A stretch of DNA of 64,000 nucleotides from Bacteroidales bacterium UBA4070. GTDB lineage: Bacteria; Bacteroidota; Bacteroidia; Bacteroidales; VadinHA17. Location of the stretch: assembly GCA_002383485.1 (NCBI GenBank), contig DFYY01000022.1, forward strand, positions 91,575 to 155,574. Direction: 5' to 3'. Position numbers and translations under genes: made by a program. Each line of letters opens with the position of its first letter. Position 1 is the first letter of the stretch. The notes below the pieces were generated by a model, which was not told the origin of the DNA, did not search any database, and saw nothing but the letters and a program-made list of their open reading frames with translations. Shown one piece after another: positions 11,756-59,765 of the stretch.

Positions 11756-14700
11756 TTAGAATGAGAGATTTATACCAAGAGTATAGGTCCTTGCCTGCGG
11801 AGCAGTATAGAAATCATATCCCTGGATGATGTTGTTGTTCTGCGTTGAACGTCCGGCACCAAGGTAGTTGACCTCAGGGTCCCATCCCTTGTATTTGGTG
11901 AGCGTATAGAGGTTCTGCACCCCGAGGTAAACCCTTACAGAAGTCATGTTAAGACGTGCGGTAAGGCTTTTCGGCAGGGTGTAGCCGAGGTTGATGTTCC
12001 TGAATCTGACATATGATCCGTCAGAGAGATAACGGCTTGAAACCTTTGTGCCGTTTCCGTCACCGAGGCGTGCCTGGGGTACATCAGTGATGTCACCCGG
12101 ATTCTGCCATCTGTCAAGCTGATCAATAGTCTGGTTGTCAAACCAGTCACCGTTGGCCGACTGATAAACGCCACCGCCGTTGTAGATCTCATTTCCGTAT
12201 ACAAAGCTGATGAGCACATTCAGGTCAACGCCGGCGAACTCGAAGTAGTTGTTGAAGCCTCCCGTAAAGTCAGGGTTCGGGGAGCCGCAGATCTGCTTTT
12301 CTGCCAGGTTGTAGTTATTCGTAGTCTCATCACTGTCTGCGCTCAGATAGTACAGTGCGTCGCCGTTGTCCGGGTCAACGCCTGCATATTTTACAATTTT
12401 GAACACTCCGATGGGCTGTCCTTCAATCACGTAGTTTATGGAGTTGGGAGTGATCTCGGGGCCGTTGATGTCGATGATTGTATTCTTGTTGAATGCCAGG
12501 TTGAAATCGGTTGTCCAGATAAGTCTGCCGGAGAGATTGTTTGAGTGGAGGGCGAATTCAACACCCTTGTTCTCAAGTTCTCCCACGTTGCTCCATACAC
12601 CTTCGAAGCCTGAAGTGGCGGGAAGGGTCCTGTAGAGAAGCAGGTCAGTGGTTCTTTTCTGATACCAGTCAAATTCACCGGTGAGCCTGTTGTTGAAGAA
12701 GCCGAAATCAAGACCGATGTCAAGCTGGGCTGTATTTTCCCATCCCAGTTCCCTGCTTTGAAGCTGTGTGACTTCAAGACCTGTGCGTCCGGCGTAATTA
12801 ACACCTGAGTAGAGTGCCAGGTGCGCATAGTCTGGAATTCCCGAGTTTCCGGTAATGCCGTAGCTGGCTCTTACCTTCAGGTAGCTGAGCACATCCTTGA
12901 TGCCAGCCATGAAGTCTTCCTGCGATATAATCCAGCCTGCTGATCCAGCTGGGAAGAAGCCAAAGCGGTTATCAACGCCGAACCTTGATGAGCCGTCTAC
13001 GCGGCCGCTGAGCGTAAAGAAGTACTTCTCATTGATCTTGTAATTGGCACGGGCAAAGTAGGAGAGATATGATGTTGCCTCTTCCCATCCGCCGTATGAT
13101 GTTACTTCAGCTGCATTGTCGATGTTTGTGAAGTCATCTGTCGGGAATCCCTTGCCGATTATGTCAGAGCCGATGCTGTTAGACTGCTGGTATGACATGC
13201 CGCCCACAAGGTTGATGTGGTGCACGCCCAGTGTCTTGATATAGGTAAGGTAGTTTTCCCAGTTGTAGTTGATAACCCTGACCGAGCGGTTCTGTGCTTC
13301 GCCGGCAGGTCCGCCGGTGATTGTTTTTCTTCCCCAGAAGTTCTTCTCGCGCAGGTCATATATGTCAGTTCCGAACTCACTCTTGAAGGTAAGATCCTTG
13401 ATGATGTTATATGCTGCGTAGATGTTTGCGAGCGATCTGAAGGAGGTCTGGTTGTTGGTTTCGTCCCTGAGTGAGATGAGGCCGTTATAGTATATCGTCT
13501 CAGTGTTCAGTTCACCTGTTTCCGGATCATAGACCGGGGTGAGGGGTGACTGTGCGACCAATTGGAGAGGGGTTGCAAATGCGTTGTCATTCTGAACCCT
13601 TTCCATCTCGGTGCGGATGACGTTCATCTGCATCCCGAAGCTGAATTTGTCAGTTGCCTGCTGGTCAAGGTTAAGCCTTGCGCTCATCTTGTTCATGTTG
13701 TTACCGCGGAGGATACCCTTGGTATCGTCATAGGCGAGGCCGGCATAGAACCTGGTTTTGTCAGTACCGCCTGAACCGGATACGTTTATCCTGTTAAGTG
13801 ATCCCTTCTGGAATGCTTCCTTTTGCCAGTCTGTATCGAAGCCGTCATCCCAAACCGGTCCTACATACATTTCCCAGATGTCTTCTTTTGGCAGCCACTC
13901 CCAGACGAGTCCGTCAACTGTGACGTTATCCATTGATTCATTGAACAGCTCAAGGTACTGATCAGCGTTCAGCCACTGAACCAGGTGACTCGGTTCACTG
14001 ATCCCTGTTGTATACTGTACATCAAATTTCGTTGCACCCGCCTTACCTCTCTTGGTCTGGATGATCACAACGCCGTTGGAGGCTCTGGAGCCGTAGATTG
14101 CTGCGGCTGATGCATCCTTGAGGATCTGTATTGACTCCACATCGGTCATTGCCAGGTCAGCAAGCGGGCTGGTAGGCTGGTTGCCTGAGTTGGAGAGGTT
14201 CTCTGCAGTGATAGGGACGCCGTCAACCACATAGAGCGGCTGGTTATTAGCTGATACTGAGGATGATCCGCGAATTCTCATTTTTACGGTTTCGCCCAGC
14301 TTACCGCTGGCCTGTTCGATGAAAACACCGGAGGTTTTTCCCTGTATTGCTGACTCAAAGCTGGCCACCGGTACTTCGGCAATACCCTTGGTCTCTACCT
14401 TGGTAATTGCTCCGGTAAGCTCTCTCTTAATGGCTGAGCCGTAACCGACGACAATAACCTCGTCGAGGCCAACGTCGTCAAGCTCCAGCGTCACATCGAT
14501 AATATTCCTGTCACCGACAAGAACCTCCAGTGACTTCATCCCCACAAACCTGAAGACCAGTATGCTTCCCGGATCTGCTGAGATGGTGTACTTTCCGTTA
14601 AGGTCAGTCACTGTACCGACAGATGTTCCCTTAACCAGGACCGTTGCCCCGATAACGGGAAGGCCGTCACTTTTGTCTGTGATCGTTCCTGTAACTGTTT

Positions 14701-23894: not shown

Positions 23895-25886
23895 ATGAGT
23901 GAAATTAACGAAGAGACCGGCAACATTTCAAACGAGGATGTTAACGTTAATGAGACCGGAGCAGAAGTAAAAGCAGAAGCAAAAGAGGTGGTGGTTGAAT
24001 CAGCAGGTGAGATGGTTGCTGAGGAACAGCCGATTCTTAAGGAAAAGAAAGAAAAGAAGGTGAAGGCAGAAGCTGCAACAGCTGCGATGGCAGCAGCAGC
24101 CACACCTGAAGAGTTTGACTGGGATTCTTATGAGACTGACGGATTCTTATCAAAGAGAAGCCGTGCTGACCAGGAGAAACAGTATGAAGAGACCCTTTCA
24201 ACCGTCGCTGTTGACGAGGTTGTGGAAGGTAAGGTCATTTCAATGAATAACCGTGAGGTTGTCATCAACATCGGGCAGAAGTCTGAGGGAGTGGTGAGTC
24301 TTAACGAATTCCGCTACAATCCCGATCTCAAGATAGGCGACACTGTTGAAGTCTATGTTGAGAGCCAGGAGGACAAGAAGGGTCAGCTGGTGCTTTCTCA
24401 CAAGAAGGCAAGGGCTTACAATTCATGGGACCGCGTCAATTCGGCCCTTGAAAACAATGAAATCATTACCGGTTACATCAAGTGCCGCACGAAGGGTGGC
24501 ATGATCGTTGACGTCTTTGGCATCGAGTCGTTCCTTCCCGGATCACAGATTGATGTCAAGCCTATACGTGACTATGACGTATATGTTGGCAAGACCATGG
24601 AGTTCAGGGTGGTGAAGATCAACCAGGAGTTCAAGAACGTGGTTGTGTCACACAAGGCGCTCATTGAGGCCGAGCTTGAGCAGCAGAAGAAGGAGATCAT
24701 CTCGAAGCTTGAGAAGGGCCAGGTGCTCGAGGGTACTGTCAAGAACATCACCTCATACGGTGTCTTCATTGACCTCGGCGGTGTTGACGGACTCATACAT
24801 ATTACTGATCTTTCATGGGGCAGGGTCAACCATCCCGAGGAGATCGTTCAGCTTGACCAGAAGCTCAATGTAGTCATACTCGACTTTGATGATGACAAGA
24901 AGAGGATCGCCCTGGGTCTGAAGCAGCTTACACCGCATCCGTGGGATTCGCTCAGCGAGGGCCTGAAAGTGGGTGACAAGGTCAAGGGCAAGGTTGTTGT
25001 CATGGCAGACTACGGTGCATTCGTGGAGATTGCACAGGGTGTTGAAGGTCTTATCCATGTCTCCGAGATGTCATGGTCGCAGCACCTTCGCAGTGCACAG
25101 GAGTTCATGAAGGTGGGTGATGAGGTTGAAGCTGTCATACTGACGCTTGACCGTGAGGAGCGCAAGATGTCGCTTGGTATCAAGCAGCTCAAGCCGGATC
25201 CGTGGGAGAACATTGACAAGAAATACAGCATCAACTCACGCCACAAGGCGCGCGTGCGCAACTTCACCAACTTTGGTGTCTTCGTGGAGATTGAAGAGGG
25301 TGTTGACGGTCTGATACACATATCTGACCTGTCATGGACGAAGAAGATCAAGCATCCTGCTGAGTTCACATCGATTGACGCCGAGATTGACGTGGTGGTC
25401 CTCGAGATAGACAAGGAGAACAGGAGACTGAGCCTCGGTCACAAGCAGCTCGAAGAGAACCCGTGGGATGTGTTTGAGGATCTCTTTACGGTTGACTCTA
25501 TTCATGAGGGTACCGTTATCGAGGTCTTTGACAAGGGAGCCATCATTGCCCTGCCTTACGGTGTTGAAGGGTTTGCCACTCCGAAGCATCTCGTCAAGGA
25601 AGACGGAAGCCAGGCAGTGGTTGAGGACAAGCTCAACTTCAAGGTTATTGAGTTCAACAAGAGTGCCAAGAAGATCATCGTCTCACACAGCCGCATTTTC
25701 GAGGATGAGAGAAAGGGATCAGATACATCGGCAAGACGCTCAGAGGCTGACAACACCAAAAAAGCAGCACGCAAGCTAAAGGCCAGCCTTGAGAAAACTA
25801 CTCTCGGTGACATCACCGGGCTTCAGGCTCTCAAGGATGAGATGGAAGAAAAAGAGGCCAGAAGTCTAGGTAAAAAGAAAAAATAA
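23895..25886 (+). CDS. rpsA: 30S ribosomal protein S1 with an acidic/Ala-rich N-terminal extension
   Basis: Six S1-domain repeats are visible (for example [42 protein letters not shown]). About 65 aa precede the conserved FDWDSYE start region. Confidence 0.9.
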   Translation: [663 protein letters not shown]

Positions 25887-47398: not shown

Positions 47399-47842
47399 AT
47401 GAGACAGCTTATACAGACATTACTGGTAACGGCATTGCTCACCCTTCTCGTTCCGGGCGAGGCTGCCGCACAGTGCAAGGGTTTTGCCAAATCGATCTGC
47501 AAGAAGGAACTGGGTGCCTATCTTCATGACGGCAACTATCATGCTGCCGTTCTGGTTGAGGGGGAAGAGGCTGAACTCTACAAGACATTCTACTCTGATC
47601 TGGAGTACCGGCTGACCATCTGCTCTGCTGACGGCATGCCACCGGTTGAGTTTACCATTTATGATGCCACAGGCAAGGTGCTCTACAATAACAAGGATGA
47701 AGGACTGGCGAAGACCTGGGACTTCAAGCTGGAATCGAGCCAGCAGCTTAAGGTTGTAGTCAGGGTAACCACCTTCGGGATCAGGGATCAGCTTCCTGTC
47801 AGCGGATGTGTGGCCATCATGTTTGGCTTCAAGGCGAAATAG
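47399..47842 (+). CDS. hypothetical secreted protein
   Basis: 147 aa with a signal peptide ending ..GEAAAQ. No family recognised. Confidence 0.45.
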   Translation: MRQLIQTLLVTALLTLLVPGEAAAQCKGFAKSICKKELGAYLHDGNYHAAVLVEGEEAELYKTFYSDLEYRLTICSADGMPPVEFTIYDATGKVLYNNKDEGLAKTWDFKLESSQQLKVVVRVTTFGIRDQLPVSGCVAIMFGFKAK

Positions 47843-47866
47843 CTAATGGCATAGGAATGAACAGGG

Positions 47867-47906
47867 CAGGGTGCACAGGAGACTGGCACCCTGTTTCATT
47901 TTTTCC
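47867..47906. terminator. hairpin terminator shared by convergent genes
   Basis: CAGGGTGC (47867-47874) pairs with GCACCCTG (47886-47893), followed by TTTCATTTTTT. Confidence 0.55.
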
Positions 47907-48435
47907 CGTGAGCTATCTGTTCTCTGCATCCGGTGCAGAGCGAAGAGCTCTTGAGATCTATCTCCTCTACGTATGTGCTGGACCGCATTACGCATGCATG
48001 ATTCTGGCAGTGAATAAGCCCGAACGTGTGTCCCAGCTCGTGAATCACCTCCTTAACGGTCCGTGAGAGGAGCAGTTTTTCATCCTGCTTCATTCCGTAA
48101 AGCTCATTGCGCAGACGGAATACAGAGGCAATTGCGTCGCTCTTTCCCAGGATGGCCTGGCCGAAGATATATGTGAGGATCGGAATATAGATATCCACTC
48201 TGAACAAACCCACCAGCTTGGTGTAATGTGATGCTGTGCAGAGTGGAATATGGCGCAGCAGCCTGTCTCCGTCATACTGTCTTCGGGTGGGATTATAGAA
48301 AGGGTTAAGGTCAAGATGGCACTCTTCGGTCATGACGCCGGTCCTGTATTCATTACCGACAGCCGTGGCCACCTGCCTCAGAAATTCCCTGTCAAACTGG
48401 CTGCAGGAAAGCAATATAATCCTCTTTTCTTCCAA
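47896..48435 (-). CDS. archaemetzincin-like zinc metalloprotease
   Basis: HELGHTFGLIHCQNHACVM...CTGC closely matches the archaemetzincin signature HEXXHXXGX3CX4CXM...CXXC. The start is uncertain. TTG at 48435 gives about 179 aa and avoids overlap with the regulator gene; the longest ORF extends to 48549. Confidence 0.7.
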   Translation of the reverse strand: MEEKRIILLSCSQFDREFLRQVATAVGNEYRTGVMTEECHLDLNPFYNPTRRQYDGDRLLRHIPLCTASHYTKLVGLFRVDIYIPILTYIFGQAILGKSDAIASVFRLRNELYGMKQDEKLLLSRTVKEVIHELGHTFGLIHCQNHACVMRSSTYVEEIDLKSSSLCTGCREQIAHGKK

Positions 48436-48455
48436 TGTGCAGGTATCAGGACAGG

Positions 48456-49796
48456 TTACTTCTTTTGCTTCAGGCCATACTTTCTGATCTTGTTGTAGAG
48501 GGTCACCCTGTCGACATTCAGCGCCCTGGCCGAGCGGGAAACATTCCACTCATATTTTGAGAGGATCTGTTCAATATGCTTCTTTTCAATTTCCTCCAGG
48601 CTCTCAACCGGGCTGTCAACAGCCTCCCTGCCCATTGGCAGATCCTTAAGTCTTATCTCCCTGCCGTTACCAATAACAATGGCGCGTTCAATCATGTTTT
48701 CCAGTTCCCTTACATTACCCGGAAATTCGAATTTCTCCAGTTGTTTCATTGCGGTGGGCTCTATGGCGATCAGGTCACGACTCATGGAGGTGCAGTATTT
48801 CCTGATGAAATGATTGACAAGCAGAGGGATGTCATCCGGTCTCTCGCGCAGCGGCGGGATGGTAATATTGACTACGTTCAGCCTGTAGTACAGGTCTTCG
48901 CGGAAGGTGCCGTTATGGACCATTGTCTTCAGGTCACGGTTGGTAGCACAGATGACCCTGAAATCAGATGTTATTTCCTTGTTACCACCTACCCTGTGAA
49001 AGCTTTTGGTTTCCAGTACCCTGAGCAGCTCAATCTGCATCTTGGGAGAGACGGTTGCGATCTCGTCAAGGAAAATTGTTCCGCCGTCGGCCATCTCGAA
49101 CCGTCCCTTACGGTTGAAGGTAGCTCCGGTGAAGGCGCCTTTCTCGTGGCCGAAGAGTTCACTCTCAAGGAGGCTTTCTGTCAACGCCCCGCAATGAACA
49201 CTGACCAGGGGGAAGTACCTTCTGGGGGAGTTGGCATGTATGGCCCTGGCAACCAGCTCTTTGCCAGTACCGCTCTCTCCGGTAATTATAACTGAGGAAT
49301 TAGACTGAGCAACACTCTCAATCTGCTCCAGGAGTCTCCGGATTGCTTCACTCTGTCCTATGATATCATCGATATCCTCCAGGGTGGTCACTCTCTTTTT
49401 AAGAGCTTCGTTTTCCTTGCTGAGACTGATCTGGGCCCCGGCATTGCGAATGAGGTGCGAGAGATCGTCAGGGTCAAACGGTTTGGTGACGTAATCATAC
49501 GCACCGTCCTTCAGCGCCTGTACCGCCGTCTCCACTGAGGCAAAGGCAGTCATAATGATGACGATGGATTCGCTGTTGAGTGCCTTTATCCTTCTCTGAA
49601 GCTCCAGCCCGTCCATCCCCGGCATCTTAATGTCAACCAGGATGATGTTGAATACTCTGTGTTCAAGGAGTTGGAGAGCTTTTTTTGCATTTTCTGCGGC
49701 TTCAACCTCGTAGCCGTCCTCGATGAACCAGTTGAGAAGGGAATCCCTTACAGAGTCCTCGTCATCAACTATCAGTATGGAAATCTTTTCTGCCAT
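48456..49796 (-). CDS. sigma-54-dependent response regulator (REC, AAA+ EBP and Fis-type HTH)
   Basis: The REC domain is ILIVDDE..DIKMPGMDG. The AAA+ Walker A is GESGTGKE, and the GAFTGA loop is present (HEKGAFTGA). A C-terminal HTH is present. Confidence 0.9.
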   Translation of the reverse strand: MAEKISILIVDDEDSVRDSLLNWFIEDGYEVEAAENAKKALQLLEHRVFNIILVDIKMPGMDGLELQRRIKALNSESIVIIMTAFASVETAVQALKDGAYDYVTKPFDPDDLSHLIRNAGAQISLSKENEALKKRVTTLEDIDDIIGQSEAIRRLLEQIESVAQSNSSVIITGESGTGKELVARAIHANSPRRYFPLVSVHCGALTESLLESELFGHEKGAFTGATFNRKGRFEMADGGTIFLDEIATVSPKMQIELLRVLETKSFHRVGGNKEITSDFRVICATNRDLKTMVHNGTFREDLYYRLNVVNITIPPLRERPDDIPLLVNHFIRKYCTSMSRDLIAIEPTAMKQLEKFEFPGNVRELENMIERAIVIGNGREIRLKDLPMGREAVDSPVESLEEIEKKHIEQILSKYEWNVSRSARALNVDRVTLYNKIRKYGLKQKK

Positions 49797-49806
49797 CTCC
49801 GGATGT

Positions 49807-51456
49807 TTATGTTGTTTTCAGCGGAAGAGTCATTGAAATGGTTGTTCCCCGGCCAACTTCCGAGTCGACTTCTATCTTGCCATTGTGGTTCTGTACAATG
49901 CCGTGCACGATGGCCAGGCCGAGTCCTATCCCGGATGCATCATGCTTGGTAGTAAAGAACGGTTCAAAAATGTGTGCTATATCTTCCTGTGCAATGCCTG
50001 ATCCGTTATCAGTTACCTCAATTCTGACACTCCTGTCATCGGGGTTCATGGTACGTATCATTATTTCCCCGTTGTCTGATACTGCTTCGGATGCATTCAC
50101 CAGCAGGGCAACGCAGGCCTGCTTAACCTGGTTGGCACTGCATCGGATCAGGTCTGCCTTTGCCTCAATCTTCGGGATGAAGCTGATGTTTGAGATCTTC
50201 GCATGATGGAGCATAATCTCGTAGGTACTTCTGATGATCTCGTTGAGATGATGCTCCTCAAAATCTTCCTGATCCTTGCGTGAGAAACCCAGTAATCCCT
50301 TTACAATATCACCACACCGTTTCGTCTCAGCCTCAATAAGTTTGAGCTGGTTCAGGATGTTTTGTCGCCTGACGGGCGTAAGGTCTTGGTTCTCAATTTG
50401 TTTGCGAACAAGTTTGGTGTAAACCAGTATGCCTGAGAGCGGGTTATTGATTTCATGTGCCACCGAGGCTGACAGTTTGCCGAGGGAGGCAATCCTTTCA
50501 ACGTTCATCAGTTCATTGTTGGCTTCAGACAGTTCCTCCGATTTTTTCTGGACCTTATACTCGAGCTGTTTCGACCAGTTTTCGAGCTCGCTGGTTGCGT
50601 TGTTAATGTTCTCCAGCATATTGTTGAATGCATGGGAAACCAGTTTCATATCATCAAGGAGGTCAGGCGTGACTTCGAGTCTTGTGCCCACTTCTCCCCT
50701 GGAGACAGCTTCGCTGGCCTGAATGAGGCTATGCAACGGGTCCTTTATCCTTTTGCGCGTGAACCATATCAGGGTGGTCACGATAATACCTGAGATCAGC
50801 AGTGCCATGAGAAGAAACTGAACTGATGATTTTTTCAGTGCACTGTCAAGATCTTTCAGCGGCATGCGGATGATCAGTGATCCAAGGACCTCTTCATTCT
50901 TAGTGTGCGCATGACAGCTGGCAGTGTAGCATGATAACTCGTTCAGAATCGGCCTGCGGATAAGCATATGCCTCTGGCCCGGCTGATTAGGCTTCATGGC
51001 GCAGTCACTCTTCTCATCAATAATCATATAGCTTCTCTCTTTCCTGGTAAATATCTCTCCGAGGTCTGAGTGACAGGAGATACAGTCAGGATTGCTGTGA
51101 TTTTCAGCATCAGCGGCAAAGGAAGAATAAGCAAGTATGTCATTCTGGTCGTACAGGTTGACGTCATCAATACCGGGCATCGTGTTGATGATGTCGAGGG
51201 TGCTGTGCAGAGTCCCCTTGTCATTCTCGAGCATCGATTTGTAAAGGGATCCTTCTACTATAGCCCCCACATTGTTGCCGTTCTGCCGGAGGACTGTGTT
51301 GAAATAATTAACATAAACAGTTCTGAAGATTGCGTTGAAAGCAATAAACATGATAATTGCAGCAAGGGAGATGATGGTTACCACCCTGCCATAGATGGTT
51401 GACCTGAACCTGAAATATTTCCGGAAATTCCGGAATGGATTGCCTGAATCCTTCAT
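49807..51456 (-). CDS. sensor histidine kinase with a Cys/His-rich periplasmic domain
   Basis: Two TM helices flank a domain of about 160 aa carrying CISCH and CYTASCH. These are followed by a HAMP-like segment, the H-box SVAHEINNPL and HATPase motifs (DNGSGI, GIGLGL). I prefer the start at 51456 (MKDSGNPF). Confidence 0.85.
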   Translation of the reverse strand: MKDSGNPFRNFRKYFRFRSTIYGRVVTIISLAAIIMFIAFNAIFRTVYVNYFNTVLRQNGNNVGAIVEGSLYKSMLENDKGTLHSTLDIINTMPGIDDVNLYDQNDILAYSSFAADAENHSNPDCISCHSDLGEIFTRKERSYMIIDEKSDCAMKPNQPGQRHMLIRRPILNELSCYTASCHAHTKNEEVLGSLIIRMPLKDLDSALKKSSVQFLLMALLISGIIVTTLIWFTRKRIKDPLHSLIQASEAVSRGEVGTRLEVTPDLLDDMKLVSHAFNNMLENINNATSELENWSKQLEYKVQKKSEELSEANNELMNVERIASLGKLSASVAHEINNPLSGILVYTKLVRKQIENQDLTPVRRQNILNQLKLIEAETKRCGDIVKGLLGFSRKDQEDFEEHHLNEIIRSTYEIMLHHAKISNISFIPKIEAKADLIRCSANQVKQACVALLVNASEAVSDNGEIMIRTMNPDDRSVRIEVTDNGSGIAQEDIAHIFEPFFTTKHDASGIGLGLAIVHGIVQNHNGKIEVDSEVGRGTTISMTLPLKTT

Positions 51457-51614
51457 TTGTCCGGTGATTATATTACCTGGCCATTTGTCCTGATAACAAT
51501 TCCCTGTGACCAGTTGCCCGAAGATGGGCAATTGATCGCAAGGAGTGTGTAATTTTTCTACAATGTACAAATATTCCCTGACTTCCGGAAATGAGTCTGT
51601 TGTGATCCGGTAAA

Positions 51615-52396
51615 TTATTTAAGGAATTCTTTCTGGAGCCTGTTCCATTCTTCAGAATTAAGGGTTGACAGTATATGGTCAACAGGTTCTACTCCGTCCT
51701 GCATATAAACGGCGGCAGTTTCATTTCCTGCTCTGCCGGCAGCACCCGCCTAAAATCCCTGATCCTTTCCAGTTCTTTTCTAAGCCAGTCAGTTGCCCCT
51801 TCAGCCACGGCAAAGCCCGTAACTTCTGCCATCCAGTCGGAGGGTCTGATTGAGCATATCCATCCTTTCCCGTACGGATCATCATGCAGAATCGACGGGT
51901 CCTCTCCAATTGCATGGTTCAGGCAGGTTACCATTCCGCTCAGGGGGGAGACAACTGCAAGTCTTTTGTCTCCCAGGGATATCTTGAGCAGTTTTTCGCC
52001 CCTGGTCAGTCTGCTGCCAGGTTCCTTAAGCACTTATGGCTTTTGTGAAGCATGCAGCATTGCAGGCAGGATCATTGCAATGCATGCACTGCCGCTTGAC
52101 ATAAACTTCGCCTTTGCTGGTCTTATAGGCATTGATCACAGTTCTCCTGATCTCATCCATCTTTCATTCCAGGCCGGCAACAGGCACATCTTCGAAACTT
52201 GGCGCCGGAAGACCGTGAGCCTCTGGCAGGCAGACTCACAGCCCTGGCAGCCGGCACAACGGGTTGAATTATAGAGCATTCCTACAAACTCTGGTTTGTC
52301 CAGGGTTTGCGGTGCAGCACTGATCCGGCTTCCCGTTGCGAGAGTAACGCCGGTGACCCAGAGTGCCTTAAAGAAACTTTGTCTGTCTGTACTCAT
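51615..52396 (-). pseudogene. mosaic, frame-disrupted gene: Tat-signal 4Fe-4S ferredoxin N-terminus joined to a GcvH-like domain
   Basis: My own three-frame reading of the minus strand. It starts with the Tat-like RQSFFKALWVTG and CAGCQGCESAC. A frameshift falls near 52220-52228, then AHGLPAPSFEDVPVAGLE. An in-frame TGA lies at 52164-52166, then KMDEIRR..KRQCMHCNDPACNAAC. A stop lies at 52026-52028, then a GcvH-like segment (SPLSGMV..DDPYGKGWI). A further frameshift falls near 51749-51757, and the tail ..VYMQDGVEPVDHILSTLNSEEWNRLQKEFLK is homologous to the C-terminus of the 555-aa neighbour. Confidence 0.6.
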
Positions 52397-52478
52397 AATG
52401 TTTTCAATCTGGTGAATTGAAGCAAATGATTGTAAATAAACTGTTTAATGATCTCTGGCATTTCAGCCGGATACTCTG

Positions 52479-54146
52479 TTACTGGTTCATGAACCTGATC
52501 TGGTATTCTTCCCATACCTCAGGCCCGAATTCATCAAGAAGCCCCTCTTTGAGTTCACCGCCGTCCTGCAGCACCACATGAGTCAGCCTGACATCGTTCG
52601 CACCTGTCACTGTTGCCACGAAGTCCTTCAGGCGCGCAAATTCTTCAGCTATCTGTTCCCTGTACTTTGTTGCTGCAGTCATAAGGCGCGATTCATTAAG
52701 CCAGTTTTCCGGCTCGATTCCGTATATCCAACCCTCTGCATAAGGGGAGGAGCGGAGCAGAGCCGTATCACCGGTGAGTTTTTCGTTACGCGAAATTATT
52801 GTACCGCTGACGGGTGAGATGATATCAAGTTGCCTGCCTCTCTGGATTACCGATGCAAGGCGTTCTCCCCTGCGGATCTTTTCACCTGCTGCTCTGAGTG
52901 TGACACGTGAAACTGTGCCGGTGACATGCTGCAGAAAATCGTCAATCCCCAGTGTAAGGGTTCCGTTTTTCTCCATGAATGCCCATGTATGGCTTTTGCC
53001 GTAGAGTATTCCGGCCGGTACTGTGACTGTGGCGGGTCCGAATGATCCCACCTCAACAGGCTGTTCACTGACGACGGTCTCAGGAGCACGTGATCTGCTT
53101 AACCGGTAGAGGAGGTATGAAATAATTGAGACTGCTGCTATCACCCCTGCTATCCATATCCATCCACCGGTGCCGGCCTTACGGTGATCTGTAGCCCGGA
53201 TCAGTTCTGTTTCAGGAGCCAGCATCTCTCTTTTGACCATTCCCTCTCCACCCGGAAGAGGTGTAAAACCTGCCTCAGCTATAAGCTCCTGCCCGCCTGA
53301 TAACAACCAGCGGACGAAATCAGCCTTAACTCCTTCGGCAGGCCTGGTTTCTGAGGCGCAGAAGATGCTGCTGAATAGTTCTTTCGGATATTTTCCTATA
53401 TATACACCACGGTTGAAACTGTTATAGTCACCGTAAAACTGTTCAAAATAGTCGGACTGACCATTGGCATTTACATCAATGGGGATGATGCCGATACCTT
53501 CCGGAAGGGCTGTTCCTGTTTCACCTGTCAGGGAAGCCAGCCTGCAGAAGAGGATCATGCCGGGATTCTTTTTGAGGAGGTCTGTTACCTCTCCGGTTGA
53601 AGAGAGACGCGATGCATTTATTGATGCTGCCTCAACGCCGGTAAAGCGTGCAAGGGCATCGACAGCATCGCTCCCGGAAGGAATGCCGGTGGTTACCTGC
53701 AGGGTGCCGTTGTTCCCCAGCAGCCTGCCCCAGGTCAGGGGAGCATCAGCTGTCAGCAGTACGCCGAACATTTGCGGGTCAATTCCTCTTGACATGATTG
53801 CATCATAAAAGGGATTTGCGGTACCCGTCACCGGAACCAGTATGTCACGGGCAACAATTACCTTCCATTCATCCTTCATGTCAACAATGTCAGCCGGAGT
53901 AGCTGAAAAGAACCTGATATCTGCCTGACCGCCTTCACCTGATGGCAGCACTTTCACCACTCTGCCCGGGTACTCGGAGAGGTATCCTTTTACCCATGAT
54001 CCTGCCAGGTTTTCAATCTCCTGCGATACCGAAACGGTAACCGATTCTGCTTTGCCAGCCGGGTGTCTGTCTGACTCTGTCTGTCCGCTCATTATTCCTG
54101 CCTGCAGCAGAATCAGACCTGCGATAATTGCGATAACTCTTTTCAT
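52479..54146 (-). CDS. membrane protein: periplasmic PstS-like substrate-binding domain, one TM helix, cytoplasmic GcvH-like domain
   Basis: 555 aa with a signal peptide. A type-2 binding-protein-like region of about 300 aa follows, a tentative call (..LTWGRLLG..GSDAVDALARF..). The TM helix is GWIWIAGVIAAVSIISYLLY. The C-terminal segment is HTWAFMEKNGTLTLGIDDF...SPVSGTI...SSPYAEGWIY, a glycine-cleavage-H fold pattern without the lipoyl lysine. Confidence 0.7.
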   Translation of the reverse strand: MKRVIAIIAGLILLQAGIMSGQTESDRHPAGKAESVTVSVSQEIENLAGSWVKGYLSEYPGRVVKVLPSGEGGQADIRFFSATPADIVDMKDEWKVIVARDILVPVTGTANPFYDAIMSRGIDPQMFGVLLTADAPLTWGRLLGNNGTLQVTTGIPSGSDAVDALARFTGVEAASINASRLSSTGEVTDLLKKNPGMILFCRLASLTGETGTALPEGIGIIPIDVNANGQSDYFEQFYGDYNSFNRGVYIGKYPKELFSSIFCASETRPAEGVKADFVRWLLSGGQELIAEAGFTPLPGGEGMVKREMLAPETELIRATDHRKAGTGGWIWIAGVIAAVSIISYLLYRLSRSRAPETVVSEQPVEVGSFGPATVTVPAGILYGKSHTWAFMEKNGTLTLGIDDFLQHVTGTVSRVTLRAAGEKIRRGERLASVIQRGRQLDIISPVSGTIISRNEKLTGDTALLRSSPYAEGWIYGIEPENWLNESRLMTAATKYREQIAEEFARLKDFVATVTGANDVRLTHVVLQDGGELKEGLLDEFGPEVWEEYQIRFMNQ

Positions 54147-54188
54147 GATGTACTTTTTTCACTGATAACTTTTCTGAAAACAGGCTTT

Positions 54189-54203
54189 CCAAAAAGCATG
54201 CCA
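54189..54203 (-). promoter_or_regulatory. sigma-54 promoter-like element upstream of the 555-aa gene
   Basis: The minus strand reads TGGCATGCTTTTTGG. The -24 GG is intact and the spacing is correct, but the -12 dinucleotide is GG rather than GC. It lies about 44 nt upstream of the ATG at 54146. Confidence 0.3.
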
Positions 54204-54493
54204 ATACTTGTAATGAACACATTATCAATTATATAATAAAAAAAGTACATGTGGTTAATTTACTGAAGTGTTGATAAATTACACACAAATCTTCTTCAGA
54301 GATTGTGAAAGACAATGAATCAGAATATTAACATTATGTTTAAAATATATACATATGTTTAAAAGTACAACACATATCTCTGAATCAGCTGTGTGTTAAT
54401 TAATGAGGTTTTATGGATTTCCTGGTTAACTGCGAACATAAGGGTGTGGTTGCATGTTTTCCAGTATCTGTTGTACACAGTGACTACTTTGTA

Positions 54494-54501
54494 TATATTT
54501 G
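54494..54501 (+). promoter_or_regulatory. Bacteroidota-type -7 promoter box (TAnnTTTG) upstream of zwf
   Basis: TATATTTG lies 38 nt upstream of the zwf ATG, with a TTG about 20 nt further upstream. Confidence 0.35.
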
Positions 54502-54538
54502 TTATCATTGAGTATTGGAAAAGAAAACTGGCAGATTG

Positions 54539-56059
54539 ATGAGCAGACCTGAGAATCAGATAATAGTAATATTCGGGGGGAGGGGTGACCTTGCCATGCG
54601 GAAAATTGTGCCGGCGCTTTATGCGCTTCATACCCAGGGGCTGATGCCTGAGAGGTATGCGATCGTGTCTACCGGAAGGAGCAAGCTTGAAGATGAAAAG
54701 TATCGTTCTGAAGTAATCGGTGCACTTGGTGATGACAGTGGCGGAGAGGGGCAGGAATCTGCCAAACGTTTTGCAGGGTCATTTCACTATATATCTGTTG
54801 ATCCTTCCATTCCTGAAGATTTTAATATTCTTTCAGAAACCCTTGTCAGGCTGAGAAAGGAGTATGGGATTTCATCCAATACTCTTTATTACCTGTCGCT
54901 TCCTCCGGAGATATATGCTGACATCTCACGAAACCTGGCGCTTGGCGGTCTCAACGTTAAGGATGATGGCTGGAAAAGGATGATCATTGAGAAGCCGTTT
55001 GGCTATGACTATGAGAGCGCGGTTGAGCTTAACCGGATACTGCTGGACAACTGGGAGGAGAGTCAGCTTTACCGGATTGATCATTATCTGGGAAAAGAGA
55101 CGGTTCAGAATATTCTGGTAACCAGGTTTTCAAACGGCATTTTTGAGCCGCTTTGGAACCGCAACTATGTGCATCATGTAGAAATAACATCCTCCGAGAG
55201 TCTGGGGGTGGAGCAGCGGGGCTCATATTATGAAGGTACGGGTGCGCTCCGCGACATGGTTCAGAACCACCTGCTGCATCTTGTCGGATTCATAGCAATG
55301 GAGCCTCCCTCCTCAATCGATTCGACATCCATAAGAAACGAACTTGTAAAGGTTTTTGAATCGCTCCGTCCGATAAAGCCTGAAGAAGTCAGTCATGCGG
55401 CTATCCGGGGCCAGTATACCGGAGCCCATGTCAGGGGGGAATGGCTGAAGGGTTATCGGGAGGAGGAAGGTGTTGATCCCGCATCTGTGACTGAAACATT
55501 CGCAGCAATAAAATTTTACATTGACAACTGGAGATGGGGTGGTGTGCCATTCTACATCAGGACCGGCAAGAGGCTTCCCACGAGGGTGACAGAAGCTGTG
55601 ATCCATTTTAAGCCTACTCCTCATTACCTCTTCTCCGGGAAAGGTACTTGCGATGGATGTAACCAGTTGATAATAAGGATACAGCCTGATGAAGGAATCC
55701 TGATCAAGTTCGGGATGAAGATACCCGGTGCCGGGTTCAACGTCAGGAACGTAAACATGGACTTTCATTATTCCGATCTTGCCGAAGGTTATATCCCGGA
55801 TGCCTATGAGCGCCTGATATATGATTGCATGAACGGCGATTCAACTCTTTACACCCGCTCAGATGCCGTTTTGGCTGCCTGGAAATTTCTCAATCCCATA
55901 CTCCGGGCCTGGAAGAATGACCATTCGGTGCCTGTCTACGGTTATCCGGCTGGTACATGGGGACCGGGAAATGCCGATGATCTTATTGAAGAACCGGAAC
56001 TGACATGGCGTTATCCGTGTAAAAATCTTGCAGATGATGGCGTTTATTGCGAATTATAA
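54539..56059 (+). CDS. zwf: glucose-6-phosphate dehydrogenase
   Basis: The NADP-binding N-terminus is IVIFGGRGDLAMRK and the active-site motif is RIDHYLGKE. Confidence 0.95.
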   Translation: MSRPENQIIVIFGGRGDLAMRKIVPALYALHTQGLMPERYAIVSTGRSKLEDEKYRSEVIGALGDDSGGEGQESAKRFAGSFHYISVDPSIPEDFNILSETLVRLRKEYGISSNTLYYLSLPPEIYADISRNLALGGLNVKDDGWKRMIIEKPFGYDYESAVELNRILLDNWEESQLYRIDHYLGKETVQNILVTRFSNGIFEPLWNRNYVHHVEITSSESLGVEQRGSYYEGTGALRDMVQNHLLHLVGFIAMEPPSSIDSTSIRNELVKVFESLRPIKPEEVSHAAIRGQYTGAHVRGEWLKGYREEEGVDPASVTETFAAIKFYIDNWRWGGVPFYIRTGKRLPTRVTEAVIHFKPTPHYLFSGKGTCDGCNQLIIRIQPDEGILIKFGMKIPGAGFNVRNVNMDFHYSDLAEGYIPDAYERLIYDCMNGDSTLYTRSDAVLAAWKFLNPILRAWKNDHSVPVYGYPAGTWGPGNADDLIEEPELTWRYPCKNLADDGVYCEL

Positions 56060-56088
56060 TTAGTTTTATATCCTGATTATCATACATC

Positions 56089-56832
56089 ATGTCACATTCA
56101 GTCAGAGTGTTCCCCACCCGTGAAGCCCTGGCTCAAAGTTTTGCGGCGATACTGATCAAGGATCTGGACCGCATAGAGCCTGATCACTTCTATACTATAG
56201 CACTGTCAGGCGGATCAACGCCTGAATATATCTTCCGCTACCTGTCAGAATACTATGCCGAAAGGATCAGCTGGGAGAAGCTGTTGGTATTCTGGGGCGA
56301 CGAACGGTGTGTGCCCCCTGAGGACGAAGAGAGCAACTACAGGATGGCTTACGAGAGCCTGCTTCAGAACGTGCCGATACCTGATGCAAACATATTCAGG
56401 ATTCGCGGAGAGGATGACCCTGCAATTGAAGCCCGCCAGTATTCGGAACTGGTGAGCAGCACGGTTCCTGAATACCGCGATCTGCCTCAATTTGACCTTA
56501 TGCTGCTGGGACTGGGTGATGACGGGCATATCGCCTCCATCTTCCCTGACAGGCCGGATCTCCTGACAACCGGTCAGCTCTTTGAGGTGGTTACCAGGCC
56601 TGACGGGAAACAGAAAAGAATCACTGCTACAGGGCGGCTGATAAACAATTCCTCGAAAATTTATTACATTGTAACCGGAAAGGGTAAGTCATCCATCGTG
56701 TCAGCCATCATCGAAGGGAAAAGCGGATCTGATCTTTATCCGGCTTCCGGAATCATGCCCGGGTCAGGTCATCTGGTCTGGATGCTTGATACAGAAGCAG
56801 CTTCCATGCTTAAGGCCGGGGAAAATAAATAA
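56089..56832 (+). CDS. pgl: 6-phosphogluconolactonase
   Basis: The motifs are IALSGGSTP and LLGLGDDGHIASIFP. Confidence 0.9.
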   Translation: MSHSVRVFPTREALAQSFAAILIKDLDRIEPDHFYTIALSGGSTPEYIFRYLSEYYAERISWEKLLVFWGDERCVPPEDEESNYRMAYESLLQNVPIPDANIFRIRGEDDPAIEARQYSELVSSTVPEYRDLPQFDLMLLGLGDDGHIASIFPDRPDLLTTGQLFEVVTRPDGKQKRITATGRLINNSSKIYYIVTGKGKSSIVSAIIEGKSGSDLYPASGIMPGSGHLVWMLDTEAASMLKAGENK

Positions 56833-56849
56833 TCATTAAATATAGTGGT

Positions 56850-57986
56850 ATGATCGCAGGAATTCTCAGGGAATCCGGAGGTGAACAGAGGGTCGCTCTT
56901 CTTCCCGGCGAGACAGCAGCAGTAATTAAACTCGGACTGAAGGTCGTGGTGGAAAAAGGTGCGGGGGATGGCGCCTTTGTCACCGATGAGGAGTACCGGT
57001 CAGCGGGTGCCTCAGTTGCTGTCCGCAGCGAGGTGATAACAGGTGCCGATCTGTTGTTTACGGTTAATCCTCCGCCATTGGATGATCTCCCGCTATTCAG
57101 GGAGGGACAGATACTGTTCACCGTGCTGGATCCATCCAGCAACAGGGACTGGCTGGAGAAGGCTCGCACCATGGGCCTGACGGTTCTGGCGCTTGATCTC
57201 GTTCCCCGTATCACGCGTGCCCAGTCTATGGATATTCTCTCTTCCATGGCTACCGTTGCAGGTTACAAGGCCGTTCTGGAAGCAGCATCGCTTTTACCCA
57301 GATTCTTTCCGATGTTTATGTCAGCCGCCGGCACAATCAAACCTGCCAGGGTACTCATTCTTGGTGCAGGAGTTGCAGGTTTGCAGGCTATTGCAGTAGC
57401 GCGCAAGCTTGGAGCCGTGGTGGAGGTATTCGATGTGAGATCGGCAGTAAAGGACGAGGTTAAGAGCCTCGGAGGCAAGTTTATTGAGGTGGAAGGAGCA
57501 CGGGAAGACAGTGCTGCCGGTGGATATGCGGTTGAACAGACCGATGAGTTCAGAAAGAAGCAGCAGGATCTTATACAGCAGCGAGCGGCAGCGGCTGATG
57601 TCATAATTGCCACTGCCCAGATACCGGGCAGAAGAGCCCCGGTGCTGGTTCTGAAGGAGACGGTTGCCAGGATGAAGCAGGGTTCAGTAATCATTGACCT
57701 GGCTGCATCCTCCGGAGGTAACTGCGAACTGACTGAAAACGGGAGACATGTGATTGCAAATGGTGTTACAATCGTGGGCCGATCGGACTACCCCTCAGTG
57801 ATGTCAGTTGATGCCAGCAGGATGTTTGGAAATAACCTTCTCAACCTGCTCAGGATAATGACTGACAAGGATGGGAACGTCAGGCCTGACCCTGCTGACG
57901 AGATAGTTATGGGGACAACGGCAGTCAGCGGAGGAGAGTACCGCAGTCCGAGAGTGAAACAGTTGCTTGACATAAAACAGATCTGA
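56850..57986 (+). CDS. pntA: NAD(P) transhydrogenase alpha subunit, part 1 (dI)
   Basis: Alanine-dehydrogenase-like fold. The NAD-binding segment is VLILGAGVAGLQAIAVARKLGA. Confidence 0.9.
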   Translation: MIAGILRESGGEQRVALLPGETAAVIKLGLKVVVEKGAGDGAFVTDEEYRSAGASVAVRSEVITGADLLFTVNPPPLDDLPLFREGQILFTVLDPSSNRDWLEKARTMGLTVLALDLVPRITRAQSMDILSSMATVAGYKAVLEAASLLPRFFPMFMSAAGTIKPARVLILGAGVAGLQAIAVARKLGAVVEVFDVRSAVKDEVKSLGGKFIEVEGAREDSAAGGYAVEQTDEFRKKQQDLIQQRAAAADVIIATAQIPGRRAPVLVLKETVARMKQGSVIIDLAASSGGNCELTENGRHVIANGVTIVGRSDYPSVMSVDASRMFGNNLLNLLRIMTDKDGNVRPDPADEIVMGTTAVSGGEYRSPRVKQLLDIKQI

Positions 57987-57988
57987 AA

Positions 57989-58291
57989 ATGGAAGGAATT
58001 CTTGATTTTTTCATGGCAAACAGGGGTACCATATATATGGTTATTCTCTCTGTTTTTCTTGGCATTGAGGTGATCAGCCATGTGCCGGCAATACTTCATA
58101 CTCCTCTTATGTCAGGAGCAAATGCCATACACGGCGTGGTAATAATAGGAGCAATCATCGTCATGGGTCATGCCGAAACTACCGGTGCAATGATACTTGG
58201 ATTCCTGGCTGTGGTACTGGGAACCCTCAACGTAGTAGGAGGATTCGTAGTGACCGACAGGATGCTTGAGATGTTCAAAAAGAAGAAGTAA
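57989..58291 (+). CDS. NAD(P) transhydrogenase alpha subunit, part 2 (membrane)
   Basis: 100 aa with three predicted TM helices, positioned between the dI and beta subunit genes. Confidence 0.85.
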   Translation: MEGILDFFMANRGTIYMVILSVFLGIEVISHVPAILHTPLMSGANAIHGVVIIGAIIVMGHAETTGAMILGFLAVVLGTLNVVGGFVVTDRMLEMFKKKK

Positions 58292-58328
58292 CCCAACATT
58301 AAGTCTGACAGTTTCAAACCACCGCCCC

Positions 58329-59765
58329 ATGAACGACGTAATGCATTTTTCCACAGGCCTTTCCATCCTCGAGATTTCCTACATTCTGGCTTCTGTCTTA
58401 TTCATACTCGGACTGAAGATGCTCAGTCACCCTCTCACGGCGAGAAGGGGTAATTCCCTTGCAGCCGTAGGTATGGTACTGGCTATTGCTGCAACACTGC
58501 TGTTTCACGAAAAGGATGGCGAGCCTATAGGGAATATTGGCTGGGTCCTTGCTGCAATGGCAATCGGAACTGCCATCGGGTGGGTGATAGCCAGGAGGGT
58601 GAAGATGACAGACATGCCTCAGCTGGTCTCATTCTTTAACGGAATGGGCGGTGCTGCCGCGGCGCTCATCTCACTGATGGAGTTTCCGCATGTAAGCGGG
58701 GAACTCATAATGAAGAGCGGTATGTCCAACGGTCATGTGCTTGCAATTCTGCTTGGTCTGGTAATCGGTACGGTCTCCTGGGCCGGAAGTATGATTGCCT
58801 TTGGCAAGCTCGACGGCCGTATCGGCGATCTGAGAGTGAAAGCCATGAAGTATGTCAACCTCTCAATCCTGGCCGCTATAATCATATTCATTATCTATAT
58901 TATGACACGTGATGTTGCAGCCTCATCCGAACTGACTCACCTTGTGATCATCCTCTTCTTTGTCTCGGTCGTATATGGAGTGTTGTTCGTCATACCCATC
59001 GGAGGGGCCGACATGCCTGTCGTGATTTCGTTGCTGAACAGTTTCACCGGAGTTGCGGCAGCCATGGGTGGTTTTCTTTACCAGAACCAGGCGATGCTGA
59101 CTGGTGGTATCCTTGTAGGTTCAGCCGGTACAATTCTTACAATCCTCATGTGCCGGGCAATGAACCGTTCGCTCCTGAATGTGATAATTGGTGTGTTCGG
59201 TGGTGGAGGGGCTGCAGTGACAGGCGTTGCCGGCACGGTTAAGGAGATAACAGTGTCCGATGCCGCGGTGCTTCTCAGCTATTCAAAAAAGGTTGTGATT
59301 GTGCCCGGTTACGGTCTTGCAGTAGCACAGGCACAGCATATATGTCATGAACTTGATAAAATGCTTGAGGAGAAGGGAGTGGAGGTCAGGTATGCCATCC
59401 ACCCCGTTGCCGGCCGCATGCCCGGGCACATGAACGTGCTTCTGGCGGAGGCGGATGTGCCGTATGAACAGCTAATAGAGAGTGATGAGATTAATGCGGA
59501 TATGCCAAATACTGACGTGATCGTTGTGATCGGGGCCAATGACGTCGTAAATCCGGCGGCTGAAGATGATCCTTCGAGCCCGATATACGGTATGCCTATC
59601 GTCAGGGCACGTGAGGCAAGAAATATCATTGTCATGAAACGGGGGATGGGTAAAGGCTACGCTGCCATTGAAAATATGCTCTTCTTCCATGACAAGACCC
59701 GGATGCTTTTCGGCGATGCCAAATCAACGTTGCAGGCATTGGTCAATGAGGTAAAAGCGTTGTAA
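58329..59765 (+). CDS. pntB: NAD(P) transhydrogenase beta subunit
   Basis: A multi-TM N-terminal half and a C-terminal dIII domain (VIVPGYGLAVAQAQH, GANDVVNPAA). I prefer the ATG at 58329. Confidence 0.9.
   Translation: MNDVMHFSTGLSILEISYILASVLFILGLKMLSHPLTARRGNSLAAVGMVLAIAATLLFHEKDGEPIGNIGWVLAAMAIGTAIGWVIARRVKMTDMPQLVSFFNGMGGAAAALISLMEFPHVSGELIMKSGMSNGHVLAILLGLVIGTVSWAGSMIAFGKLDGRIGDLRVKAMKYVNLSILAAIIIFIIYIMTRDVAASSELTHLVIILFFVSVVYGVLFVIPIGGADMPVVISLLNSFTGVAAAMGGFLYQNQAMLTGGILVGSAGTILTILMCRAMNRSLLNVIIGVFGGGGAAVTGVAGTVKEITVSDAAVLLSYSKKVVIVPGYGLAVAQAQHICHELDKMLEEKGVEVRYAIHPVAGRMPGHMNVLLAEADVPYEQLIESDEINADMPNTDVIVVIGANDVVNPAAEDDPSSPIYGMPIVRAREARNIIVMKRGMGKGYAAIENMLFFHDKTRMLFGDAKSTLQALVNEVKAL

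Follow-up and report, generated by a model that had tools for sequence, protein, structure and literature searches.

The 64,000-nucleotide stretch of contig DFYY01000022.1 from Bacteroidales bacterium UBA4070 analyzed here (the window) carries four intact genes and two gene stubs on its minus strand, between positions 54146 and 47896, and this string is real and conserved, probably as a sigma-54-controlled sensory operon of hundreds of Bacteroidota species. The reading we favor, with a probability of roughly 0.7, is a Bacteroidota-specific, sigma-54-dependent signal-transduction operon that is probably self-activating, with a window copy that bears a 2.07-kb deletion and likely still works as a four-gene version, a form that at least 15 other genomes retain. 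Its regulatory logic is of the classical NtrC type, and its gene set is not described in the literature searched. The cluster probably functions in haem-based periplasmic sensing. The initial annotation had described a co-directional string of five units; the common direction holds, and the units number six, two of them stubs fused by the deletion, with the interval read as a ferredoxin remnant also containing the 3' remnant of a GcvH-like gene.

Conservation of gene order carries the first part of the evidence. Relatives of gene 1, the promoter-proximal gene for a PstS-like/H-protein-like fusion, were sought by a scan of one genome per species and are encoded in 397 species genomes. The 80 best loci were fetched and compared with the window under locus numbers (L001, L002 and so on); all belong to Bacteroidota, among them the cultured carrier Sunxiuqinia elliptica CGMCC 1.9156 (L074). 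The full form comprises seven genes in fixed order on one strand, encoding the PstS-like/H-like protein, an HmcB/HybA-like protein, an HmcC/HybB-like NrfD protein, a second H-like protein, a sensor histidine kinase, a sigma-54 activator, and an archaemetzincin. A tblastn search with the seven L001 proteins found this order and strand in about 55 of the 80 fetched loci, down to 32% identity in gene 1, and two further metagenome contigs carry the same order. Together with the reduced loci described below, these loci span Bacteroidales, Prolixibacteraceae, Lentimicrobiaceae, and others. L001, at 77% identity in gene 1, has the flanks of the window but seven genes, of which genes 2-4 encode a 291-amino-acid (aa) Tat-signal Fer4_11 protein, a 405-aa NrfD protein, and a 236-aa GCV_H protein with a membrane anchor. 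When the second H-like protein served as query in a homology search, every relative recovered was of this 236-aa family and lay in the same operon, with none outside it.

A reduced form, with only gene 1, the kinase, the regulator, and the M54 archaemetzincin, is present in about 17 loci. The initial annotation had asked whether its gene families occur together elsewhere; they do, in the same order and on the same strand, in the approximately 55 seven-gene and 17 reduced loci, with varying flanks. Neighbors outside the seven genes are common only within a clade and differ in distant clades, and clustering of the flanking open reading frames (ORFs) of all loci gave no conserved extra neighbor beyond clade-level synteny. 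On a neighbor-joining tree of kinase and regulator, parsimony infers the seven-gene form for the root and requires nine or more changes of state; the tree is rough and the number approximate, and these changes suggest repeated independent losses of the middle genes. L019 (11742-11972) and L021 (11743-11934) keep an iron-sulfur (Fe-S) gene stub as the window does, and L083 keeps the second H-like gene (11888-12592) with the Fe-S and NrfD genes gone; the three represent different stages of one kind of loss.

The second part of the evidence lies upstream of gene 1. The sigma-54-like element noticed in the initial annotation, TGGCATGCTTTTTGGA, with its -24 part TGGCAT at 54203-54198, is conserved at the same place as TGGCAY-N5-TTG, on the right strand, in 67 of the 71 loci with enough DNA upstream of gene 1, its first T lying 36-113 nt from the gene-1 start (median 60). 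It is usually the sole match in the approximately 21 kb scanned per relative locus, second matches being rare and none of them at a conserved place. By chance, about 1.6 matches would be expected in 64 kb with both strands counted. In the window TGGCATGCTTTTTGGA is the only intergenic match, the other two lying inside the rpsA-like ORF at 23895-25886, and no further intergenic match that could mark a candidate regulon member was found in the 64 kb. TTG is followed by G in 38 loci, by A in 22, by T in 6, and by C in 1, so the GG that had been given as a reason for doubt is the family norm.

Farther upstream, alignment of the loci on the -24/-12 element revealed a 17-mer dyad with the consensus TGTWKA-N5-TMAACA and the ideal form TGTTGA-N5-TCAACA. 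In most loci a tandem pair lies at -190 to -150 and one dyad at -100 to -90 from the -24 element, and the window carries the three dyads as TGTTGTACTTTTAAACA, TGTATATATTTTAAACA, and TGTGTAATTTATCAACA. The 76 upstream regions contain 139 dyads, 62 of them at -100 to -90, and their density of 7.95 per kb is about 50-fold above the 0.157 per kb found overall. NtrC-type activators bind dyads of 6-5-6 layout, in tandem pairs. The 6-5-6 layout and the tandem pair fit this mode of binding, and the dyads are putative sites of the operon's own regulator. The features of the operon are collected in Table 1.

Table 1. Features of the operon and its control region, in window coordinates.
Feature	Position	Strand	Remarks
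Upstream dyad 1, TGTTGTACTTTTAAACA	54356..54372	-	Putative activator site; member of tandem pair
Upstream dyad 2, TGTATATATTTTAAACA	54337..54353	-	Starts 19 nt past dyad 1
Upstream dyad 3, TGTGTAATTTATCAACA	54269..54285	-	Proximal; about 82 nt upstream of the -24 element
Sigma-54-type -24/-12 element, TGGCATGCTTTTTGGA	54188..54203	-	First T 57 nt from the ATG of gene 1
Gene 1, PstS-like/H-like protein	52479..54146	-	555 aa; signal peptide, PstS-like periplasmic domain, one transmembrane helix, cytoplasmic H-protein-like domain
5' stub of hmcB/hybA-like gene (Tat-exported, 4x[4Fe-4S])	52036..52396	-	About 120 of 291 codons
Deletion junction	52027..52036	-	About 2.07 kb absent relative to L001 (12114-14185) and L004
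3' remnant of second membrane-anchored H-protein-like gene (gcvH2)	51615..52027	-	
Internal 17-mer, TGTAGAAAAATTACACA	51546..51562	-	Resembles the upstream dyads
Conserved stem-loop	51502..51543	-	Directly past the internal 17-mer; -26 kcal/mol, z = -5.7
Sensor histidine kinase	49807..51456	-	549 aa; transmembrane helix, periplasmic sCache-like domain, transmembrane helix, HAMP, HisKA, HATPase
NtrC-family response regulator	48456..49796	-	REC, sigma-54 AAA+ with GAFTGA, Fis-type helix-turn-helix
Archaemetzincin (Peptidase_M54)	47896..48435	-	179 aa; TTG start; HELGHTFGLIH and four Cys
Hairpin 3' of the last gene	47867..47893	-	Between convergent genes; z = -3.8

Most of the spacing given earlier for the string was reproduced, with gaps of 82 nt between 52479 and 52396, 10 nt between 49807 and 49796, and 20 nt between 48456 and the TTG start at 48435. 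The figure of 158 nt ahead of the kinase was not, as it depends on a TTG at 51570 that falls inside a conserved non-coding element. Because of the orthologues and of this element lying within the extension from TTG 51570, the kinase start is placed at the ATG at 51456. The AT-rich upstream boundary is borne out by a GC content of 0.29-0.39 over 54000-54450. At the downstream boundary the hairpin is present, kept in L001 and L004 and weaker in L005; its description as a terminator fares less well, as it has no T-run and a terminator scan made no call. The TTG start proposed for the archaemetzincin is upheld by the relatives: 51 loci have TTG and 19 have ATG as the homologous codon, and in many cases an in-frame stop closely precedes it.

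The periplasmic segment of the kinase contains CXXCH (residues 125-129), Cys152, and CX4CHAH (176-184) in all 70 complete orthologues, and these motifs are also invariant in loci without the Fe-S/NrfD pair. The predicted structure of the sensor (predicted local distance difference test, pLDDT, 73) comprises a long helix and a five-stranded sheet, with the WalK sCache domain as best match, followed by CusS, CitA, and DctB; a homology search with the sensor returned only Bacteroidota fragments. The sensor may work as haem-c Cache sensors do, but we do not file it as a member of that family. In L066 (14692-18069) two tandem copies of the haem-motif kinase gene precede the regulator gene.

The regulator matches Response_reg (2e-32), Sigma54_activat (3e-71), AAA_lid_14, and HTH_8 (7e-13) of Pfam, and EKGAFTGA is present in its translation. 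It scores under the equivalog cut-offs of AtoC, ZraR, and NtrC and is assigned to no named orthologue. The last protein is recognized as an archaemetzincin by NF033823 (156 bits against a cut-off of 145), with HELGHTFGLIHC...C...CTGC in its translation. To our knowledge, no physiological role is generally established for archaemetzincins, and no paper linking them to Bacteroidetes was found in the literature searched.

Gene 1 combines two domains, one on either side of the membrane. In its AlphaFold model (pLDDT 78) the N-terminal part is predicted to adopt the type II periplasmic binding fold of PstS-type phosphate-binding proteins, with 4jwo as a match in a Foldseek search against the PDB (template modeling, TM, score 0.65, 15% identity). 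Across the matches 4jwo, 4omb, and 1twy, E runs from 2e-13 to 4e-11 and TMt from 0.53 to 0.65, at an identity of about 15%. The PBP_like_2 profile is weak in the window protein (E = 0.11), and precomputed hits to it exist in some relatives. Residues 224-235 of this domain (window 53442-53477) form a conserved loop, D-x-N-x-N-G-x-x-D-x-x-E, that is reminiscent of calcium-binding EF hands and of which D224, N226, N228, and E235 are invariant.

The C-terminal domain matches Pfam GCV_H with 79 bits, and its model is that of a true H-protein fold, superposing on E. coli GcvH (3ab9, 3a8j) with TM scores of 0.92-0.94, a root-mean-square deviation of 1.2-1.6 Å, and 34% identity. It bears a conserved C-terminal extension of about 55 aa and reaches 80 bits against the NCBIfam GcvH cut-off of 117. 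Both H-like domains of the operon are predicted to be cytoplasmic from the positive residues after the membrane helix. In a gapless phmmer alignment the lipoyl-lysine of E. coli GcvH stands opposite the invariant Gly437 of gene 1, which is followed by Lys in about 90% of sequences and by Arg in the window. Because a glycine occupies the lipoyl-lysine position and lipoylation is sensitive to the position of the lysine, the H-like domains are probably not lipoylated. Public pipelines label these proteins as glycine cleavage system H protein, which is a misleading annotation.

Codon 438 (window 52833-52835) encodes Lys in all 42 seven-gene loci, and Arg438 occurs only in loci without the redox module, namely the window lineage, L009, and L014. 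This association of K438R with module loss amounts to two or three independent events and is a lead rather than a result. In the window, gene 1 deviates from the consensus at 4 of 110 columns conserved to at least 90%, compared with 0-2 in close relatives, and differs from L002 by 8 synonymous and 8 non-synonymous changes plus K438R.

The lost redox enzyme supposed in the initial annotation can now be named as an HmcBC/HybAB-type pair of Fe-S and NrfD genes, removed with part of the second H-like gene by the 2.07-kb deletion. In blastn, window 54687-52036 corresponds to L001 9457-12113 and window 52027-47303 to L001 14186-18912; the absent stretch comprises the 3' two-thirds of the Fe-S gene, the NrfD gene in its entirety, and the 5'-most ~99 codons of the second H-like gene. 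The window thus has no intact Fe-S/NrfD module, retaining a frameshifted ~120 codons of the Fe-S gene and no NrfD gene. In intact relatives the pair matches the Pfam Fer4_11 and NrfD families; the Fe-S protein contains four cluster motifs and is anchored in the membrane by its C-terminus. In NCBIfam the pair comes closest to HmcB/HmcC from the Hmc complex of Desulfovibrio and to HybA/HybB from hydrogenase 2 of E. coli, with scores under the equivalog cut-offs (L001 bits/cut-off: HmcB 326/420, HmcC 405/550, HybA 246/263, HybB 252/450).

The microhomology ATGCT(C/G)AAG occurs at both break points in intact relatives and suggests an illegitimate deletion. The same deletion is present in two assemblies of a near-identical strain, L002 (NCBI, 99.26% identity) and L003 (JGI); with three independent assemblies in agreement, an assembly artefact is unlikely. 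As the cause of the recurrent deletion, recombination between the coding regions of the two H-like proteins was considered and rejected, as the reduced loci keep the gene-1-type C-terminus (VVLQDGGEL...PEVWEEFQ) and not that of gcvH2. The gcvH2 remnant still matches GCV_H (E = 4e-10) and has a frameshift common to the window and L002. Two further lesions of the window are absent from L002, namely the loss of 1 bp from the Fe-S stub (52225/52224) and a change of GAG to TAG within the H-like stub (51691-51689); they reflect strain-level pseudogene decay or possibly sequencing errors. The mismatch to L002 is 1.37% in the remnant and 0.36-0.37% in the kinase and regulator genes. Because of the extra lesions relative to L002 and the higher mismatch in the remnant than in the kinase gene, the stubs are decaying pseudogenes.

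The widest gap of the string always precedes the kinase gene; its median is about 160 nt, against 2-61 nt for the others, and it holds a conserved internal element. The sequence TTGTAGAAAAWTTAMACA recurs in this gap in 45 loci, including loci that have lost the three middle genes, and its 17-mer, TGTAGAAAAATTACACA in the window, agrees with the dyad consensus at every position or at all but one. The hairpin that follows varies in sequence by lineage and keeps its pairing, with compensatory changes at 14 of 14 pairs. An Rfam scan of 47700-54700 at E <= 1 gave two sub-threshold chance matches only, and the hairpin belongs to no Rfam family. None of the internal gaps is enriched for the Bacteroidetes -7 motif TAnnTTTG (0.30 per kb before the kinase against a background of 0.33), so that no internal promoter of the housekeeping type could be placed. 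These features suggest a control point that may punctuate transcription between cargo and regulatory genes, in the form of a sub-promoter, an attenuator, or a stabilizing 5' stem. A palindromic match to the dyad consensus, TGTTAATTATTTCAACA, also lies inside the kinase ORF at 51297-51313; its position is kept in 36 of 70 orthologous kinase genes, and it may be a further regulator site or simply reflect conserved codons (VNYFNT).

Divergently from the operon, on the plus strand at 54539-59765, run zwf, pgl, and pntA/pntB-type genes, which are syntenic with it in about 36-38 Bacteroidales-clade loci. The 392-bp AT-rich region must accommodate both the zwf promoter and the dyads.

A working scheme can be drawn from these components. 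A periplasmic signal, redox-active or gaseous, would act on the Cache-like domain of the kinase, which would carry covalent haem c, possibly with the PstS-like protein serving as a co-receptor that binds a ligand or as a feedback partner. The kinase would phosphorylate the regulator, which in its phosphorylated state would assemble on the dyads and activate sigma-54 RNA polymerase. Transcription would yield more of the PstS-like/H-like protein and, in intact strains, the quinone-linked Fe-S/NrfD module and the second H-like protein, and read-through would yield more kinase, regulator, and archaemetzincin, closing a positive feedback loop. The internal dyad and hairpin might determine the basal or the read-through expression of the regulatory genes, in the way that glnLp with its NtrC site does in E. 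coli glnALG.

Several observations weigh against this explanation. The -12 element lacks the canonical C, a departure found across the family, and promoter use, autoregulation, and haem attachment are all read from sequence. No RpoN box was found in six frames of the window and of 83 loci, a result that is uninformative at about 20 kb per genome. Kinase residues 1-269 do not match Pfam PF11845 (DUF3365) even at E <= 1, and the structure models of gene 1 (pLDDT 78) and of the kinase sensor (73) are only moderately confident. The substitutions in gene 1, K438R included, may indicate relaxed constraint in this strain. The internal hairpin, if it were a terminator separating two units, could weaken the feedback loop.

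That last point leads to the most serious rival, in which the sigma-54 promoter serves the cargo only and its transcript ends at the hairpin, while a separate promoter at or past the internal 17-mer, which the regulator modulates rather than amplifies, serves the kinase, regulator, and archaemetzincin genes. We regard it as a tentative but real possibility. The consistently large pre-kinase gap, with its strongly conserved 17-mer and covarying hairpin, speaks for it, as does the retention of this element in lineages without the three cargo genes; against it, TAnnTTTG is not enriched there, the hairpin has no clear T-run after it, and no conserved second sigma-54 element is present. Such a division would in any case refine the self-activating operon rather than contradict it. 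Much less probable is the view that conserved synteny has merely kept unrelated genes together and that TGGCA-N5-TTG is a chance or non-sigma-54 motif, to which we give very little weight. The missing -12 C and the flanking genes syntenic in about 40 loci of the Bacteroidales clade would suit it, but in distant clades the flanks differ and the seven genes are still together, and the motif is conserved in divergent intergenic DNA, at the right position and strand, beside a gene for a sigma-54 activator and with dyads of NtrC geometry upstream.

It is also improbable that the whole string in this strain is a dying relic, drifting into pseudogenes after loss of the redox module. Both stubs are frameshifted or carry a nonsense mutation, some of these lesions being specific to the window, and the equal numbers of synonymous and non-synonymous differences from L002 in gene 1, together with its departures from conserved columns (K438R among them), point the same way. 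Yet the four remaining ORFs are full length with intact motifs, the kinase and regulator genes diverge little from L002, and neither the promoter nor any of the dyads is damaged. Exactly these four genes, with the same cis elements, persist in about 17 other genomes that stem from several independent losses, and because the same core is stably kept in other genomes, the four-gene core of the window is probably functional. A different extension of the sensory operon makes the seven-gene system a hybrid of sensing and respiration; we consider it unlikely. Here an HmcBC-type module without an enzyme partner of its own would link the menaquinone pool to two haems in the Cache domain of the kinase, the two membrane-tethered, non-lipoylated H-like domains would act as cytoplasmic signaling adaptors, and the archaemetzincin would be a regulatory protease. 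Because the module was lost repeatedly and Lys438 became Arg only in module-less lineages, there are hints of coupling between the H-like domain and the redox module. If true, the hybrid would give a bacterial archaemetzincin its first defined physiological role, as a dedicated regulatory protease.

The proposed self-activating sensory operon provides concrete predictions for poorly studied environmental Bacteroidota, which concern its promoter, four sites for the activator, the layout of the operon, and the type of sensor. It also gives a fixed genetic setting to three protein types without a known bacterial role, namely membrane-tethered H-like domains lacking the lipoyl-lysine, the PstS-like/H-like fusion, and the archaemetzincin. 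The repeated independent loss of the HmcBC-like module forms a natural experiment that separates a core of receptor, kinase, regulator, and protease from optional parts. In keeping with the impression in the initial annotation that the combination is not a familiar system, no description of this cluster was found in the literature searched, and its cargo families all go unmentioned in a 2025 survey of sigma-54 regulons.

Known systems can be compared part by part. The H-like domains share the H-protein fold with GcvH and with lipoate-binding relatives of the LbpA type, but in place of the lipoyl-lysine they have the invariant glycine, with the lysine one residue further on (arginine in the window). 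Unlike GcvH and LbpA, they are membrane-tethered, and in gene 1 the domain is fused to a periplasmic PstS-like domain; the conserved extension of about 55 aa and scores far under the GcvH cut-offs set them further apart from GcvH. As in other archaemetzincins (M54; AmzA, AMZ1/2), the last protein combines HEXXHXXGXXH with a Cys-rich zinc site, whereas the fixed position of its gene, right after that of a sigma-54 response regulator in every locus examined, distinguishes it from them.

Hmc/Nhc of Desulfovibrio and HybA/HybB of E. coli hydrogenase 2 pair an Fe-S subunit with an NrfD-like subunit (PMC8076601, PMC6303296). Intact relatives of the window operon likewise encode a Tat-exported, tail-anchored protein with four [4Fe-4S] motifs and an NrfD-family membrane protein of about 405 aa. 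Unlike those complexes, their operon has no catalytic or multihaem partner (HmcA, HybOC) and no HmcDEF, the kinase is the only operon protein with haem-c motifs, and the pair scores below the equivalog cut-offs and is absent from the window.

For the sensor, the closest parallel is the sCache_haem group, represented by DUF3365/Tll0287 and Geobacter GSU0582/GSU0935 (PMC12889525, PMC3460858), and haem-c Cache sensors act as nitric oxide or redox sensors (PMC12889525). Common to both are an extracytoplasmic Cache/PAS-like fold with CXXCH, fusion to HAMP and kinase modules, and WalK as structural reference. The present kinase differs in having two motifs (CXXCH and CX4CHAH) and a fifth invariant Cys, in its lack of a PF11845 match, in the modeled placement of the motifs between strands 2/3 and 4/5 rather than in an insertion between strands 3 and 4, and in its restriction to Bacteroidota in the search run.

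The regulatory arrangement finds its counterpart in an enterobacterial operon. E. coli glnALG (glnA-ntrB-ntrC) has the sigma-54 promoter glnAp2 with upstream NtrC dyads, and glnLp with an NtrC site before the kinase gene. The operon described here similarly places a probable sigma-54 promoter and 17-bp 6-5-6 dyads ahead of a cargo gene followed by kinase and activator genes, a layout that would bring about positive autoregulation as in glnALG, with a further putative activator-type site in the gap before the kinase gene. It departs from glnALG in its unrelated cargo, its -12 element without C, its dyad (TGTTGA-N5-TCAACA instead of TGCACC-N5-GGTGCA), its membrane kinase with a periplasmic sensor, and the protease gene that follows the regulator.

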